Source of the DNA: an archaeon
GTDB lineage: Archaea; Iainarchaeota; Iainarchaeia; Iainarchaeales; Iainarchaeaceae
Direction of reading: 5' to 3'
Assembly (NCBI GenBank): GCA_035289485.1
Contig: DATDXA010000052.1
Span: 1 to 13,418, forward strand
DNA length: 13,418 bases
In this document: positions 1,767 through 12,524 of the stretch, in pieces
Position numbering within the stretch: the stretch's first letter is position 1
Layout of the letters: each line of letters opens with the position of its first letter
Notes under the pieces: generated by a model
What the model saw: only the letters and a program-made list of their open reading frames with translations
Databases searched by the model: none
What the model was told of the DNA's origin: nothing
Translations under genes and position numbers: made by a program

Positions 1767-1867
1767 GGAAGAGTGGCGCAGCCTGGTAGCGCACATGACT
1801 GATAACATCAGTAAAATGCAGTATGTCAGCAATCATGTGGTCGCAGGTTCAAATCCTGCCTCTTCCA
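1767..1867 (+). tRNA. tRNA-Ile (anticodon GAU) with a 27-nt intron at position 37/38 (intron 1805-1831)
   Basis: Acceptor stem GGAAGAG/CTCTTCC, D-arm GCGC..GCGC, anticodon stem CATGA/TCATG, CT-GAT-A, T-arm GCAGG-TTCAAAT-CCTGC. Canonical bulge-helix-bulge: CTGA (1799-1802)/TCAG (1826-1829) helix with 3-nt bulges TAA (1803-1805) and CAA (1830-1832). Confidence 0.95.
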
Positions 1868-1872
1868 TTTTA

Positions 1873-2991
1873 CTACGACAGATAAGAGTTAATCGCCCCC
1901 ATCAATTTTTTCTGCTTATCCAAGCCGATGAATCCGATTCGCTCATAAAATTTTATGAGGTTTTGTTTTCCGCTTATTTTTAATTCATAGTATTTTTCCT
2001 TGTAAGGGCCATGAAATTTGCATTCAATCTCAAAACACTTCAGCAGCTCAATCAATTCGAGCACGCCGTTCTTGTTTATCAGCATCATGCTTATCACTCG
2101 GTCTAGGTTTTTTCCATGAGGACTGAACACGACACTTCCCTCATCATCAAAGAAAGCCCGAAGGTAGCTAGCCTTGGCATTAGCATCCCCTGTTTTGACA
2201 AAATATGGAACTTCCCAGTCTATTGAGTAAAACTTTATGCCTCGAAGGAATTTTTTGACGCCTTTATTTGCAAACCCGGCACAATAAAGCCCTGGTTGCT
2301 TACAAGTCCGCCAAGGCTTTACTTTAAACAATTTCAGTGCAACATCAGAAAACTCGAATATTAAATGCAAATTCTGATTAGCGTAGGAAAATGTATTGGT
2401 ATTTTTGGGCTGGCAACCGTCCGCCTGCACATGCGCAATGAATTTTGCCAAGTTTTCACAAAAACCCGCACCGGCCTGATGTTCTATCGGATAATATTCT
2501 TCGACGGACTTCACACGAATTTTTTCTTTTGGCTGTTTCAGAAAGGTATGTATTATTCCATTTCTAATATCAGTTCTGTGTAAATTTTTGACACGCTTTA
2601 TTTCCCTTATTCTGGCGAAATAAGTAGCCCTTTCATCAATCAGGCTGGATGCCGCAAATCCGCCTTTTCTTGCACCCCAATTCAGCGGCATCTCTTTTTC
2701 TATGAATTTCTTAAATTCATTCGCGCTTTCATCGACAGATATGAGTTTTTGGAAAGTTGACAATCTGATATTGTTCTTTTCTGAAAAATAATCTCTCGCA
2801 GTGGTTTTTGAAACCTTGATTAGCCGCCCGAATGCAGTAATGCCAAGTGAGTGTCTCTGCATAAAATTTGCCAACAGTTCCCTCTGCTTCCCTTTCTGGA
2901 AAACGAGCCTTTTGTCCTCTATTCTCCCACCACAACAAGAACGGTTTTCCGGCTTAAAAGGAAACTGGGGGAGTTCGGTGCCGGTGCGCAT
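1873..2991 (-). CDS. Free-standing two-motif LAGLIDADG endonuclease-family protein with N-terminal HTH
   Basis: LAGLIDADG helices LAKFIAHVQADG and YLRAFFDDEGSV, C-terminal 'Y.LKISG..NL..FYE.IGF...KQ.KL' signature, and an N-terminal XRE-like HTH (GITAFGRLIKVSKTTARDY). No intein splice motifs. Start uncertain: GTG 3003, ATG 2991 (TAATG overlap) or ATA 2922. Confidence 0.88.
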   Translation of the reverse strand: MRTGTELPQFPFKPENRSCCGGRIEDKRLVFQKGKQRELLANFMQRHSLGITAFGRLIKVSKTTARDYFSEKNNIRLSTFQKLISVDESANEFKKFIEKEMPLNWGARKGGFAASSLIDERATYFARIREIKRVKNLHRTDIRNGIIHTFLKQPKEKIRVKSVEEYYPIEHQAGAGFCENLAKFIAHVQADGCQPKNTNTFSYANQNLHLIFEFSDVALKLFKVKPWRTCKQPGLYCAGFANKGVKKFLRGIKFYSIDWEVPYFVKTGDANAKASYLRAFFDDEGSVVFSPHGKNLDRVISMMLINKNGVLELIELLKCFEIECKFHGPYKEKYYELKISGKQNLIKFYERIGFIGLDKQKKLMGAINSYLS

Positions 2992-3140
2992 TAAAACCAC
3001 CACGCGAAAGAAATTCCTAGGAAAAAGCCGATTGTGCAGTTGAGAACAAAATCGGCTTGCTTTGGAAAACCAAAGAATTCCAGAATCGCAACGGAGTAAA
3101 TAATTCCTGCTCCAAGCAAAATGATTGAGAGAGGATTCAT
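2991..3140 (-). CDS. Small 49-aa two-TM membrane protein (not in ORF track)
   Basis: MNPLSIILLGAGIIYSVAILEFFGFPKQADFVLNCTIGFFLGISFAWWF*. GGAGG SD upstream, ATGA overlap with the upstream ORF, TAATG overlap with the LAGLIDADG ORF. Confidence 0.6.
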   Translation of the reverse strand: MNPLSIILLGAGIIYSVAILEFFGFPKQADFVLNCTIGFFLGISFAWWF

Positions 3141-3241
3141 TTTGAATCCTCCTTCATGTTCGCGAGTATTTGTGCGAATGTCCTGCCTTCTGCAAAAGGG
3201 CTTCCCCTCTGCGTTACTTTAGTTTGATAATGAAAACTCAT
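3137..3241 (-). CDS. Small 34-aa leader ORF (not in ORF track)
   Basis: MSFHYQTKVTQRGSPFAEGRTFAQILANMKEDSK*. Strong SD GGAGGTGA (3254-3247) just upstream of ATG 3241. Its stop overlaps the next ATG. Confidence 0.5.
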   Translation of the reverse strand: MSFHYQTKVTQRGSPFAEGRTFAQILANMKEDSK

Positions 3242-3481
3242 TCCAATCACCTCCAGCGCGGAAAACGAGTTTTTCCTAAAAAAAGCCGGTTACGGGCTTT
3301 GGGCGTATTAAATCCCTACAGCCCAAGCGACCCTTCCCAAGAAGGGGAAGGGTTTAAACGCACAAAGACCGAGGCTTTTGGAAAAACTCGGGGCTGGAGG
3401 TGGAAGGAGTTTCCATAGTTTAATGACCGGCACCTTAATAGAACCAAAAACCTATTTAATCGGAAGAATTACAATGGTTAC

Positions 3482-8652: not shown

Positions 8653-10047
8653 TTATTTCATTTCTTCAAGTATTTTCTGCACCGCGCGCGCATCCGCCTT
8701 GCCTTTCATTTTGCGCATCACGGTTCCGATTAGAAAGTTCATGGATTTTGAATTTCCCGTTTTGAATTCGGTGAAAGCAGAAGCATTTTCCGCAACCGCT
8801 TCCTTGACCGCTTTTTCCAAATCGCCAGAAGACACATCAATTAGGAGTTTATTCTTCTCCAAAAATTCCTTAGGCTCAATTCCTTCAAGAGCGTACTTTA
8901 TGAGCGATTCTTTAGCGTTCTTGTCGCTGACCTTTCCGCCCTTTAGAAGAGCCACGAGAGCTGAAATCCCCTTTGCAGTTATTTTAGTGTCCGCAAGGCC
9001 TAAGGAATTATAGTTCAGAATCCCTAGCAGCTCTCTTGAAACAATCCTTGCTGCAATCTGCACATCAACTTTGGCAGCATCCTCAAAAATCTGGGCAATG
9101 TCTTTGTTCTGCGCGAGAACCTTTGCATCGTACTCCTTCAGGCCGAATTCACCCATGAAGCGCTTCGCTTTTTCTTCTGACATTTCAGGGAGTTCTTTCC
9201 TGATTTTTTCCAGCCAACTTGCATCAATTTGCGTTGGAACCAAATCCGCATCCACAATAAACCCATAATCCTCTTCGGATTCCTTTTTCCTCAAAGTATA
9301 GGTTGTTCCGCTTGCCTCATCAAAGCCGCGCGTTTCCATTTCAATTTTCCCGCCTTCAGTTATCACAGTTTTCTGCCGCTCCAATTCGTGCAGCAATACA
9401 AGCTCCACATTTTTTGTCCCGGTGACATTCTTGACCTCAACCCTTTCTCCGCCCTTGATTGAGATGTTGGTATCGGCCTTTATTACAAATTTGCCGGAAT
9501 TGAAAATTCCAAGATAATCGACAATTAGATTCAGCTTATCAAGAAATTCTTTTGCCTCTTCTTTTGAAGATATATCAGGTTCGGTCACAACTTCACAGAG
9601 AGGAACACCGGACCTATTGTAATCTACCAAGACATACATTGAACCGTGCATTCCTGATTCATGAACCAGTGCTCCGGGGTCTTCCTCAAGATGAACTCGT
9701 CTAATTTTGATTTTTTTGCCGCTGTCAAGTGCGATGAACCCATTATTCCCAAGCGGAGCGTCATACTGGCTTATCTGAAAATTTTTGGCGAGGTCCGGGT
9801 AAAAATATGTTTTTCTCGAAAAGACAATTTCTTTTTCAACCCGGCAATTTAGGGCAAGCGCCAATTTAATGGCATAATCAACGGCTTTTTTGTTTAGAAC
9901 TGGTTTGCTGCCTGGATGCCCAAGGCAAATGGGGCAGGTGGCAGTATTTGGCTCCGCATCTTTTTGGACAATTGGGCAACTGCAAAAGAGCTTACTCTCA
10001 CAGTCCAGAGGCAGATGTAATTCGAAGCCACAGATGAATTCTCCCAT
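8653..10047 (-). CDS. gatB: Asp/Glu-tRNA amidotransferase subunit B
   Basis: GFELH, SKLFC, CPICLGHPGSKPVLN, FSRKTYFYPDL.KNFQISQY, HLEEDPG, DYNRSGVPL.EVVTEP, and a C-terminal YqeY-like domain (FLIG.VMR.MKGKAD). At 464 aa it lacks the GatE insertion. Confidence 0.96.
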   Translation of the reverse strand: MGEFICGFELHLPLDCESKLFCSCPIVQKDAEPNTATCPICLGHPGSKPVLNKKAVDYAIKLALALNCRVEKEIVFSRKTYFYPDLAKNFQISQYDAPLGNNGFIALDSGKKIKIRRVHLEEDPGALVHESGMHGSMYVLVDYNRSGVPLCEVVTEPDISSKEEAKEFLDKLNLIVDYLGIFNSGKFVIKADTNISIKGGERVEVKNVTGTKNVELVLLHELERQKTVITEGGKIEMETRGFDEASGTTYTLRKKESEEDYGFIVDADLVPTQIDASWLEKIRKELPEMSEEKAKRFMGEFGLKEYDAKVLAQNKDIAQIFEDAAKVDVQIAARIVSRELLGILNYNSLGLADTKITAKGISALVALLKGGKVSDKNAKESLIKYALEGIEPKEFLEKNKLLIDVSSGDLEKAVKEAVAENASAFTEFKTGNSKSMNFLIGTVMRKMKGKADARAVQKILEEMK

Positions 10048-10074
10048 AGGAGAATATTGCCTGATTAGATTTAA

Positions 10075-11295
10075 TTAGCTTTTTATGCCGAAAACCCTGC
10101 CATTTCGCCATCCAATTCGCTTTACTTCAACTAGCCCCAACTCAAGAAGACCCTTTATTCGTCTACCTTGAAGGTTATACCCAATCAGTTGGTCTCTTAA
10201 GTTTCCGGTTCCGATGTTAAGCAGGTACCCAAGTTCTTTTATCGTAAGATCCTGTTTTCTAAGAAGCTTCAGAATTTCTGCTTTTGTATGCCCTCGGTGG
10301 CGGTTATACCATTTTCTATTTTTTAGAGTGAAATGTTTCAAAAAAGCCGCCTGCTTTGAAGGAATGACAAAATCGCCCATGTCTTCTTTTATCATATCAA
10401 AACTTTTAACGGAAATAATTGCTGACTTTTTGTAATTCTGGACTTGGTAACCAAGTTTTTTGCACAACCTACGAGACACCTCGGTAAGACATGATTTTGG
10501 CGAGAATAATATTTCGATTCCACCATCGCCTATCCTACCTTCGTCTATAATTATCGCCTTTAACAATTCAACAAGAAATGGCCTAGGGTAAGAAAATATT
10601 TGTTCTGGGAAAACTACTTTTCCAGTCCTGAAATCCAGTATTTGAAAATATTTTTTTAGTATTTTTGGGACAATTTTTGCAACAATTACCCTCCAATGCT
10701 TTTTCAAAATTGAGTGGTCTACATCCCCAAAAGACACTTTCAATTTTACAATGAAATTATCCATTGCCTCAGGACTTTTACTTATATAGCATGCATTTCC
10801 CTTCTCCCCACCATAGCCGTCAGATAAAAAATGCGCCAATACTGCAAACGTTTCGGGAATTATCTGCAAGGGCAATTGCGGTTTTATTATTATTCCGGCT
10901 CTTGAACTAGCCTTGATTTCTTGAACCTGATTTTGCAAGGAATTTATTTCCAAACCGAGTGCATAACAGAGTTTCTTTAAGCTAGTAATATGAATGAACC
11001 GATTTACTTTACCGTGCTTTTTCAGTTCAAAACCATTTTTCCACGAATATAAGCTGCTGCCCTTGATTTTGAGCTCTTTTCTAGCTAATCCAAGAGAGCC
11101 ATATTTTTCTTCCAATTGTGAAAAGATAATTTTTCTGGCATTTTTTTCAAGAAGAATGCAAGTATCTTCAGGAAAATCTGATAAGTTCAAATAATACAAT
11201 TCCCCACCATCACAAAAGTTGTTCTTGACAATATATTGCTCTTTGCAGGGAGTGCACTGCCGGTGCGAACCTGAAGAAGAGAGGCGATGCATCAT
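10075..11295 (-). CDS. Free-standing two-motif LAGLIDADG endonuclease-family protein with N-terminal HTH and C-terminal wHTH
   Basis: LAGLIDADG helices VLAHFLSDG and LLKAIIIDEGRI, N-terminal HTH (YGSLGLARKELKIKGSSLYSWKNG), and C-terminal ArsR-like wHTH (EILKLL...LTIKELGYLLNI....LR..L...L.ELGLVE). Start is ATG 11295 (ATGA overlap) or TTG 11199. Confidence 0.82.
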   Translation of the reverse strand: MMHRLSSSGSHRQCTPCKEQYIVKNNFCDGGELYYLNLSDFPEDTCILLEKNARKIIFSQLEEKYGSLGLARKELKIKGSSLYSWKNGFELKKHGKVNRFIHITSLKKLCYALGLEINSLQNQVQEIKASSRAGIIIKPQLPLQIIPETFAVLAHFLSDGYGGEKGNACYISKSPEAMDNFIVKLKVSFGDVDHSILKKHWRVIVAKIVPKILKKYFQILDFRTGKVVFPEQIFSYPRPFLVELLKAIIIDEGRIGDGGIEILFSPKSCLTEVSRRLCKKLGYQVQNYKKSAIISVKSFDMIKEDMGDFVIPSKQAAFLKHFTLKNRKWYNRHRGHTKAEILKLLRKQDLTIKELGYLLNIGTGNLRDQLIGYNLQGRRIKGLLELGLVEVKRIGWRNGRVFGIKS

Positions 11296-11640
11296 TCATC
11301 GCCTCCGAACTCTTGCAGAATCCACAGTTCCCTGTCTGTGAGTTCCTCTCCGTGCTCATAGGAGAGCATTGCATTTAGTATCTCCCTTCTGTTTGGGAGC
11401 TGAATATTTTCGATTTTCATGAGCCAACCACCTCCAAAGGGTTGAATTTTTTCGTGGACGTCTCTGCTGCTTTTGGAGGCATTAAATATTTAGGCTCAGC
11501 CGACCCATCCCAAGATGGGTAAATGTTTAAGCCGAGAAAAGCAGAGTCCTTCGAAAAAATTCCTTAGGGAGGTGGTTGTGGAAATTGCTTGCCAAAATGA
11601 ATTAACCGTATTTTACAAAGGGCTCTTTGTGTAATTGGCA
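11248..11640. ncRNA. Putative structured RNA / cis-element, copy 2 (LAGLIDADG-associated)
   Basis: Contains the 20-nt motif shared with 2969-2988, local hairpins (11281-11305, 11323-11340, 11346-11366, 11382-11399), and a long hairpin 11411-11587 with the same apex as copy 1. Confidence 0.55.
11292..11420 (-). CDS. Small 42-aa acidic leader ORF (not in ORF track)
   Basis: MKIENIQLPNRREILNAMLSYEHGEELTDRELWILQEFGGDE*. SD GGAGGTG (11435-11429) lies 8 nt upstream of ATG 11420. Its TGA overlaps ATG 11295 of the LAGLIDADG ORF. Confidence 0.55.
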   Translation of the reverse strand: MKIENIQLPNRREILNAMLSYEHGEELTDRELWILQEFGGDE

Positions 11641-11654
11641 AATAAGCCGAGTTA

Positions 11655-12524
11655 CTATGAAATTACTACTGTTTGTAGTATGATGAATATGACTATCCAA
11701 ATTAGTATTAGCGCAAATTCTAAAAACATTAAAATTTTTGCTAACAGCGCAGTTTTTGTTCCATCCACTTCAGGGGTTATATGTTTTAAGGCAAAGAAAC
11801 TCAGAATTGGCTGTAACAAAACAACGGCCATTAGCGCTATTGGCGCAAAAATTGTGAAAATGAAGGTAAGGATGTAGGCTAAAATCCACAGTGCGAGTTT
11901 TGCAATGTAGAATTTCTTTTTGGAAAATCCCTTTACTAAAATAGGTAATACCAAATAAGTTGCTGCTATCAGCAAAATCAATAAAAGCGAAAACAGAAAA
12001 CCCGCAAAGTTTGTGTTCCCTGCAACAGATGGGTTAAGTGCCGGTCCTGGTGTTGTATCTCCAAGCACAACCAAACAGGCTCTTTCGGTTTTTGTCAAAT
12101 CAAAGGCGCAATCGTTCTTCAAATCAACGAATTGAAAATTAGGGTTATTGTAAGATGAAAGATCACCTTCGAATTCATTCATGCGGTCGCAGATAACTGT
12201 AGTGCTGACACGATAATTTCCGAGAGGCTGGATTATCCTGCCTTTTTCAATGATTTTGAATGTGTTTTCTGTCTTATTTTTTCCAATCGAAATGCAAACT
12301 TGTTCACTTGATAGGACTTTCGAATTTTTTGCAATAATATATGAGGAAAGATTACTGTCACTGTAAACAACCGCATTTGAATCGTTTGGAATTCCAAGTT
12401 GGTTTATTGTCATTTTGATTTCGTTAGCAAAAAACTCATTCCCTCCAATTTGCGCTATTGGCGTTCCAAGAACAAACGAAAAAAGCAGTACAAGACAAAT
12501 TGAGAAATAAAGGTAATTTTTCAT
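11655..12524 (-). CDS. Hypothetical membrane protein (signal peptide, extracellular Cys-containing domain, 3-4 C-terminal TM helices)
   Basis: 289-aa ORF with an N-terminal signal, a soluble domain with 4 Cys, and a hydrophobic C-terminus. Confidence 0.78.
   Translation of the reverse strand: MKNYLYFSICLVLLFSFVLGTPIAQIGGNEFFANEIKMTINQLGIPNDSNAVVYSDSNLSSYIIAKNSKVLSSEQVCISIGKNKTENTFKIIEKGRIIQPLGNYRVSTTVICDRMNEFEGDLSSYNNPNFQFVDLKNDCAFDLTKTERACLVVLGDTTPGPALNPSVAGNTNFAGFLFSLLLILLIAATYLVLPILVKGFSKKKFYIAKLALWILAYILTFIFTIFAPIALMAVVLLQPILSFFALKHITPEVDGTKTALLAKILMFLEFALILIWIVIFIILQTVVIS

Follow-up and report, generated by a model that had tools for sequence, protein, structure and literature searches.

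How two unrelated LAGLIDADG genes come to lie behind one and the same upstream arrangement is the question raised by the window analysed here, a stretch of 13,418 nucleotides (nt) of archaeal DNA from a genome of 1.16 Mb in 64 contigs (G000). A sequence-only reading of the window had described a shared minus-strand layout, consisting of a long hairpin, a Shine-Dalgarno (SD) sequence in its stem, small open reading frames (ORFs), a short SD-containing hairpin, a sequence motif, a TATA-like box, the sequence TGGTGGG and the nuclease body, and each of these items was found where it had been placed. On balance, we favour the view that both stretches, cassettes a and b (C52a and C52b), belong to a modular type of mobile homing-endonuclease cassette found commonly in this DPANN (Iainarchaeota-type) lineage, and that the head of the cassette acts as an insulated translational gate. 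On the model of phage endonuclease genes, the head (hairpin and micro-ORF) would most likely be a portable expression-control module. The components of the two cassettes, with protein lengths in amino acids (aa), are as follows.

3241..3402, minus strand: long hairpin of cassette a (head RNA); fold -85.1 kcal/mol, z -6.1, 146.6 bits with covariance model R1; outer pairing may reach approximately 3236-3416.
3246..3254, minus strand: SD sequence GGAGGTGAT of micro-ORF A, in the 3' base of the hairpin, paired with CCACCTCC in the 5' base.
3137..3241, minus strand: micro-ORF of type A, 34 aa (MSFHYQTKV...), conserved in 7 aligned copies; no known family.
3125..3155, minus strand: short junction hairpin of cassette a, z -4.2, predicted to bury an SD-like AGGAGG together with the initial codons of the following ORF.
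2991..3140, minus strand: optional hydrophobic (two-segment) micro-ORF of 49 aa, its ATG overlapping the preceding stop; no family match.
2969..2988, minus strand: upstream box CGCACCGGCACCGAACTCCC of a generic promoter in cassette a, with a TATA-like box at 2953-2959.
2926..2932, minus strand: SD-like TGGTGGG of cassette a; the next in-frame codon, as read from the sequence, is ATA (ATG in the orthologue in genome G004).
1873..2991, minus strand: LAGLIDADG endonuclease gene a, 372 aa, its ATG overlapping the preceding stop as TAATG.
11422..11580, minus strand: long hairpin of cassette b; fold -71.9 kcal/mol, z -5.3, 146 bits with R1.
11427..11435, minus strand: SD sequence GGAGGTGGT for micro-ORF B, again in the hairpin's 3' base.
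11292..11420, minus strand: micro-ORF of type B, 42 aa (...ELTDRELWILQEFGGDE), backed by an alignment of 14 sequences, a codon-position pattern and a two-helix model.
11281..11306, minus strand: short junction hairpin of cassette b, z -4.7, predicted to bury GGAGG, with the overlapping stop/start ATGAATGATG in the loop.
11248..11267, minus strand: generic promoter box CGCACCGGCAGTGCACTCCC of cassette b, with a TATA-like box at 11230-11237.
11203..11209, minus strand: TGGTGGG of cassette b, putatively SD-like, then an in-frame TTG.
10075..11295, minus strand: LAGLIDADG endonuclease gene b, 406 aa from the upstream ATG, assigned by predicted fold; ends 27 nt before the gatB start.

Both long hairpins of the window are more stable than expected by chance, with none of 200 shuffled sequences folding as well in either case. 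The GGAGGTG that had been located in the stem lies in the 3' stem, pairs with CCACCTCC, and is followed by an ATG 5-8 nt on. The covariance model R1 was built from the five full copies in G000; RNAalifold missed the long hairpin when two truncated copies were included in the alignment, and recovered it from the five full copies alone. The sequence-only reading had tied its proposal of a structured element to covariation in a larger alignment, and that covariation is strong. Among the 34 full copies, which come from 30 genomes, the proportion of paired cells is 90.5%, and compensatory changes on both sides are seen at 38 of the 53 pairs. None of 500 shuffles equalled the observed value, and sliding the pairing partners by 1-3 columns gave at most 57%. 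In addition, an independent MAFFT alignment of the five G000 copies gave 89% pairing and 13 compensatory pairs. The stem at the SD site, where GGAGGUG pairs with CCACCUCC (pairs 7-15 with 199-205), is 94-100% paired in the 34 copies.

Conservation is unevenly distributed over the hairpin. Family-wide, it is the sub-apical core and the stems that are conserved; the apex, which had been taken for a conserved feature, is the most variable part. Runs of five or six U or A residues and the TTAAA/TTTAA cores remain unchanged in 33-34 of the 34 copies while other pairs covary, and the bulges and internal loop are conserved and asymmetric. In well-paired columns, G-U pairs on the cassette strand outnumber A-C mismatches by 37 to 18, which is modest evidence for an RNA from that strand. 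The outermost 50-60 nt of the stretch as first delimited (11581-11640) are not conserved; since nothing is conserved upstream of the hairpin, the hairpin forms the left border of the module.

The element resembles no family to which it was compared. Neither leader matched Rfam 15, even with E-values of up to 10 considered (the best scores over the leaders had E-values of at least 1, at approximately 15 bits), and at the gathering score only two tRNAs were returned, in line with the earlier impression that the element is not a described family. The terminal-repeat pattern of a miniature inverted-repeat transposable element (MITE) or an insertion sequence is not seen either: each cassette has a single copy of the hairpin, confined to the 5' border and succeeded by an SD and a micro-ORF, and nothing related to it was found at the 3' end of the cassette. 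A literature search, beyond whose reach lay most subscription journals, found no publication that describes the element.

The small ORFs of the sequence-only reading turned out to be real conserved micro-protein genes of two types, as judged by alignments and codon pattern. The consensus is MSFxxKVSxRxNPF... for type A (7 aligned sequences) and ...PSxEEI...EELTDRELWILxEFGGD for type B (14 aligned sequences). In type B, variation is highest at the third codon position (0.39, versus 0.19 at the first and 0.13 at the second), one close pair has a ratio of nonsynonymous to synonymous change (pN/pS) of 0.24, and the predicted model is a two-helix hairpin of good confidence (predicted local distance difference test, pLDDT, 87). 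Neither type found a match in Pfam, PHROGs, solved structures or the ESM Atlas, the sole weak match being that of one of the 14 type B members to crAss001_48 (0.0015). A hydrophobic ORF of approximately 50 aa intervenes between micro-ORF and nuclease gene in approximately 9 of 35 copies, as counted by eye.

The ORFs of the cassette are linked by their stop and start codons. When a script was set to accept a start no more than 5 nt from the previous stop (ATGA, TAATG, TGATG), 25 of 35 copies proved to have an unbroken chain of ATG-started ORFs that leads from the SD of the micro-ORF (SD1) to the long ORF; cassette b and its orthologue in genome G001 were missed by the script and are chained on reading. 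It is at the stop/start junction that the short SD-containing hairpin described earlier was found (z -4.2 in cassette a, -4.7 in b). At this first junction, an SD-like GGAGG is base-paired in the hairpin with the opening codons of the ORF that follows, and the stop and start codons are left in the loop, in cassette a as the ATGA overlap; this layout is the classic one for translational coupling. The junction hairpin reaches z < -2 in 12 of 30 copies, with a mean z of -1.6.

Both nuclease genes had been read as LAGLIDADG genes, an assignment upheld for gene a by Pfam and for gene b by predicted fold. Gene a matches LAGLIDADG_3 (E 3e-7) and keeps, on reading, the acidic residues of both motifs (...QADG and ...DDEG); a sequence search of solved structures gave no meaningful match. 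Gene b has no Pfam match. Its model, based on 12 homologues from a protein database search (pLDDT 83.9), has PI-PkoII (E 1e-8), the intron-encoded I-DmoI, I-Tsp061I and WhiA as its top matches in Foldseek. Across the 12 homologues, D159/G160 and D251 are invariant and E252/G253 nearly so, and residues 1-31, which are encoded by the motif and TATA region, are predicted to be disordered. Judged by motifs in one case and by the model in the other, both genes appear to encode two LAGLIDADG cores with conserved acidic residues.

The sequence-only reading had staked its proposal on the element not occurring independently of LAGLIDADG genes, and the link holds beyond the window. In G000, a LAGLIDADG-type ORF follows six of the seven hairpins within approximately 100-350 nt, called by Pfam in C52a, C34 and C21, by fold in C52b, and by motif reading only in C5 and C27. 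Among relatives, 45 of 77 long ORFs have LAGLIDADG Pfam matches: in a first sample, an ORF of at least 150 aa starts within 700 nt in 33 of 35 copies, 19 of the 33 matching LAGLIDADG_3 or Hom_end, and in a second sample such an ORF is present in 44 of 50 non-identical copies, 26 of the 44 having LAGLIDADG-type matches. Most of the remaining long ORFs look like families that resemble divergent LAGLIDADG proteins, as gene b does. The association is one-way, as approximately seven other free-standing LAGLIDADG genes in G000, by our own reading, have no hairpin.

Cargo other than LAGLIDADG genes was also seen. An ORF of 67-75 aa takes the place of the nuclease gene behind heads C20 (67 aa) and L056, while L049 carries a 274-aa ORF of unknown type and L080 an ORF with a helix-turn-helix only; neither the 67-aa ORF nor the L049 cargo has a match in Pfam or PHROGs. 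At L057 (G059:C29), the hairpin and a type A micro-ORF precede an ArdC-N / IrrE-peptidase (anti-restriction-like) gene. At L043 (G042:C13), a frameshift splits the LAGLIDADG gene into ORFs of 70 and 298 aa, representing either a decaying copy or an assembly error.

The head is common in this lineage, with more than 100 copies across the sampled genomes. G000 has seven, of which five are full (C52a, C52b, C34, C5 and C21), C27 is cut by a contig start and C20 by a contig end. The covariance model found matches at E-values of up to 0.01 in 38 of 100 related genomes, with 1-12 copies each, and in 60 of 150 other genomes of a phylum-wide sample; scores were 60-130 bits on the sense strand and approximately 30-44 bits on the reverse strand. 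An exact pattern of the core gave no matches in viral contigs. A loose core pattern picked out 96 stretches in contigs of one genome per species; 80 of these were taken, of which the model confirmed 63, the other 17 being chance matches in bacteria. The confirmed copies lie in records titled Iainarchaeum, ainarchaeum or archaeon in 55 cases, and the remaining eight in four metagenome-assembled genomes that are bacterial by record title alone. In the DNA contigs of four other public runs, the same arrangement is found, with breaks at the hairpins and no joint that skips the cassette.

The flanks of the two cassettes allow occupied and empty sites to be compared among close relatives.

1767..1867, plus strand: tRNA-Ile(GAT) with a 27-nt intron; Rfam tRNA 61.1 bits, found by ARAGORN with introns allowed.
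10048..10077, minus strand: 3' junction of cassette b, with a TTAAAT box that overlaps the stop codon of the nuclease gene and lies 28 nt ahead of the gatB ATG.
8653..10047, minus strand: gatB, the host gene directly after cassette b (Pfam GatB_N 1e-88).

Cassette b is present in G000 and G001, with 78% DNA identity. In G002, G004 and G005 there is no cassette at this site, and the IMPase stop abuts the gatB start (TGAATG, or 5 nt apart). Gene a ends 5 nt from the 3' end of the convergent tRNA-Ile(GAT) on the opposite strand; cassette a lies behind this tRNA in G000 and G004, and in G002 the tRNA is followed after approximately 230 bp by the next gene. The empty sites in sister genomes thus identify the cassettes as insertions beside conserved genes (the gatB start and tRNA-Ile), and both occupied and empty alleles exist at these conserved sites. 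Elsewhere in G000, the nuclease genes in four of the five other copies have the following ends: inside tRNA-Arg(CCT) (C34), inside tRNA-Arg(TCG), ahead of what we read as a methionyl-tRNA synthetase gene, and ahead of an ORF whose function is not known (C27).

The host genes beside the insertions differ from those at empty sites. The tRNA-Ile sequences of G000, G002 and G004 are strongly divergent between occupied and empty sites, notably in the acceptor and T arms, and the intron, which default ARAGORN missed, is found in G000 only, as compared with G002 and G004. In the case of gatB, the N-terminus reads EFICGFELHLPL in G000, G001 and G003, versus VIGLEIHVQL at empty sites. The TTAAAT box before gatB is likewise shared with G001 and G003, and no other hexamer is as strongly enriched at promoter distance as TTAAAT (7.3-fold at -36..-26 of ORF starts). 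The placement of this box over the nuclease stop, together with its enrichment, suggests that the cassette probably supplies a new promoter for gatB, which it has cut from its operon. G003 has no cassette and keeps the box 28-29 nt before gatB; box and N-terminus together make it look like an allele that has lost the nuclease gene, that is, a cassette remnant and a possible cleavage-resistant allele. The site in question is L064 (G003:C10, approximately 115,760-116,040). Between IMPase and cassette b, at 11655-12524, the window also contains an ORF of 289 codons with no Pfam or PHROG match; as G001, G002, G004 and G005 lack this ORF at the corresponding position, it represents a second insertion there.

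Head and nuclease have separate histories. The heads of C34 and C52a are 97% identical over 159 positions, apex included, the shared stretch stopping near the end of the micro-ORF, whereas their nucleases are 24% identical and their targets differ (tRNA-Arg(CCT) versus tRNA-Ile). Conversely, nuclease a shares 62% protein identity with its orthologue in G004, and the two heads are merely 71% identical. In another pairing, cassette b and a G002 copy have heads that are 80% identical and nucleases without a mutual BLASTP match. These comparisons show the head, comprising hairpin and micro-ORF, to be portable, with swapping or homogenisation from one cassette to another. The co-inherited module proposed earlier holds insofar as head and nuclease gene occur together; an endonuclease with its own RNA is not supported, given heads at 97% and nucleases at 24%, while the data agree with the other suggestion made at the time, a mobile element with built-in expression control.

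The cassettes also carry a second control region, which is not specific to them. The motif, TATA-like box and TGGTGGG had been listed as parts of the module and are indeed present in it, but the motif with its TATA-like box recurs at 28 genome sites before unrelated genes. The 8-mer CACCGGCA occurs 65 times in the genome versus approximately 35 expected, and the CGCACCGGCA motif with a TATA-like box 16-38 nt on was found at 28 sites, versus 1 of 17 in a reversed-genome control. At approximately 16 of the 28, an ORF starts 28-33 nt past the TATA box, the geometry of a leaderless mRNA. The genes concerned include ones with N-termini read as UvrB-, PIN- and AbrB-like and one intein-bearing gene, and approximately nine of the sites head LAGLIDADG genes, whether or not a hairpin is present. 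Its recurrence before unrelated genes marks the motif with its TATA box as the generic promoter of the lineage, and since the motif falls in different frames of the two window ORFs, it is a DNA signal and not coding. TGGTGGG, with TTG, ATG or ATA after it (in copy b, the G004 orthologue of a and copy a, respectively), resembles the SD of a promoter-proximal start. Further examples of GCACCGGCACCGAACCCT with a TATA box are at C4:10273, C14:15699, C47:13348 and C43:13475, and the set may form the regulon of one transcription factor.

As a gate, the head would work as follows. On transcripts that read in from host genes, the full hairpin, with the SD base of its 3' arm on CCACCUCC, would close SD1; the micro-ORF would remain untranslated, the junction hairpin would stay shut, and the coupled nuclease ORF would be silent. 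From transcripts that lack the 5' arm, the micro-protein would be translated, and the nuclease by coupling. Such transcripts could begin at the invariant TATA-like TTTAAT core in the 3' arm, a candidate embedded promoter; this core is 3.3-fold enriched at -36..-26 of ORF starts, and a near-identical box is found at C3:46631. The invariant U and A runs in both arms may, in addition, halt incoming transcription from either side.

A number of observations weigh against this reading. Ten of the 35 ORF chains are broken under the script criteria, 18 of 30 junctions have no significant hairpin, and the 34-copy alignment behind the pair counts had been fitted to the covariance model. The bias of G-U over A-C is merely twofold, among related sequences, and the opposite strand folds equally well or better in all five full copies, which would be compatible with a DNA-level or antisense role. 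The evidence for the embedded promoter consists of TATA-like hexamers, which are to be expected in any AT-rich palindrome, and just ahead of the hairpin TATA-like boxes show no enrichment (present at -30..-11 in 8 of 33 copies). Finally, the nuclease gene has its own promoter, by which the gate could be bypassed, so that the purpose of the coupling becomes puzzling; a methionine codon approximately 30 nt past the TATA box in several copies suggests a leaderless mRNA.

Some of these points would follow if the hairpin acted as DNA or as a two-way transcription signal, whether a bidirectional terminator or insulator, back-to-back promoters, or a cruciform by which heads are shuffled, a reading that we consider unlikely. 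The fold of the opposite strand would be expected, as would the invariant U and A runs (which give oligo-T on both strands) and the two invariant cores, each a hexamer with 3-6 fold enrichment at -36..-26 relative to ORF starts; the position of the hairpin at the left border of conservation, the shuffling or homogenisation of heads between cassettes, and the assembly breaks at hairpins are also accommodated. A DNA signal would have no need, however, of an outermost stem made of the SD of a translated micro-ORF and its complement, nor would a terminator or promoter need 53 covarying pairs, and the G-U excess on the sense strand and the asymmetry of the conserved bulges and internal loop likewise speak for RNA. 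The reading is partly compatible with that of a translational gate, and the two are not exclusive. Joint arrival of head and nuclease, as indicated by the absence of both from G002, G004 and G005 and the presence of both in G001, is harder to reconcile with the idea that the head is a small gene unit of its own (a micro-protein gene, sometimes with a small membrane peptide, and possibly addiction-like) that serves LAGLIDADG genes as a landing pad. Nuclease ORFs chained to the micro-ORF in 25 of 35 copies, and the scarcity of heads with no long ORF (2 of 35 and 6 of 50, including some truncated where a contig ends), also make this idea quite improbable, even though the nuclease-less heads (C20 and L056 with their small ORFs, the ArdC/IrrE-like L057, and L049), the promoter of the nuclease gene, the differing histories, and the optional hydrophobic ORF of approximately 9 in 35 copies are all in its favour.

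The remaining explanations involve the enzyme itself. That the hairpin (as RNA or as a DNA cruciform), the two-helix micro-protein, or both work with the LAGLIDADG enzyme, as cofactor, inhibitor or immunity factor, or recombination hotspot, would make the exchanged module a new kind of composite archaeal mobile element; we give this rather little weight. More specifically, the hairpin RNA could be a cofactor or guide of the enzyme, as HEARO/omega-RNA is for IscB, and a conserved structured RNA beside a nuclease gene across the whole lineage, with a variable apex, is what such a role would lead one to expect. LAGLIDADG enzymes recognise long DNA sites through their own protein surface, though, and near-identical heads serve dissimilar nucleases with different tRNA targets, whereas the orthologous nuclease in G004 goes with a diverged head. 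Moreover, the hairpin also precedes non-nuclease cargo (the ArdC/IrrE-like gene and the 67-aa ORF), and the SD of a translated micro-ORF forms the base of its 3' arm. A guide role is highly improbable and was rejected on the decoupling of head and nuclease; no guide-like segment that tracks the target was found.

Two repeats unrelated to the cassettes were also seen in the window. At 800-860, behind tRNA-Gln, is a palindrome of approximately 55 nt (a T/C-rich arm, a short loop and the complement) with copies of 81-93% identity on many G000 contigs and in all six genus relatives; this is a second, unrelated family of repeated hairpins, possibly a terminator or REP-like element. The final 58 nt of the contig (13361-13418) close in a GC-rich hairpin that is 82-95% identical to sequences on several other contigs of G000 and its relatives, once at the end of C31, and this repeat may also break assembly.

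The favoured reading, that of a translational gate, draws on a mechanism described for phages. According to PMC2988022, hairpins that sequester the ribosome-binding site and contain embedded promoters control I-TevI, I-TevII, I-TevIII and segB in T4 and mobE in Aeh1. PMC2988022 and PMC2677866 describe transcripts from upstream promoters as silent and those from the hairpin-internal promoter as translatable, and according to PMC2677866, 15 of 16 free-standing endonuclease genes of fractured-gene loci have a hairpin upstream. The archaeal head is alike in that a stable hairpin buries the SD controlling a selfish endonuclease gene beside or inside conserved host genes. The hairpin contains the SD of the ORF that it would regulate, that ORF being the micro-ORF and not the nuclease gene.

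The differences from the phage leaders are several. The host is an archaeon and the nuclease a LAGLIDADG enzyme; the hairpin, at approximately 160 nt and 53 pairs, is 3-5 times longer, is conserved in sequence throughout the lineage, and is common to unrelated nuclease genes; and the embedded promoter is a candidate hexamer only. Furthermore, it is a micro-protein gene that the hairpin would gate, the nuclease being reached by stop/start coupling, a second hairpin and a promoter of its own. The genes themselves resemble free-standing homing endonuclease genes, as in the intronless homing of the T-even seg and mob genes, and archaeal single-chain LAGLIDADG enzymes, in their double-motif fold, their insertion beside highly conserved genes, their presence or absence among close relatives, and host-gene ends that differ from those at empty sites. 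Unlike the intron-encoded I-Tsp061I, they are free-standing, have extra predicted helix-turn-helix or winged-helix parts, and are fitted with the head module. With HEARO/omega-RNA (IscB, TnpB) the cassettes share a structured RNA beside the nuclease gene of a mobile element; here, by contrast, the RNA is an mRNA leader with an SD, the nuclease is of another family, no segment tracks the target, and there is no Rfam match. The module is thus a new head of structured RNA and micro-protein on a known regulatory principle, and not an RNA-guided nuclease.

This analysis adds a new family of structured RNAs of approximately 160 nt, with strong covariation and no Rfam entry, and two new families of micro-proteins, which together front the free-standing homing endonuclease genes that riddle these small DPANN genomes. 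For annotation, the head provides a marker of such cassettes and of the remodelled ends of adjacent essential genes and tRNAs, and for archaeal genetics it offers a compact candidate for a natural expression gate. For the biology of selfish nuclease genes, the findings suggest that those of archaea have reached the same solution as phage T4, namely a ribosome site hidden in a hairpin and expression from chosen transcripts, and that in the archaeal version this solution is packed as a swappable module with a leader micro-protein.

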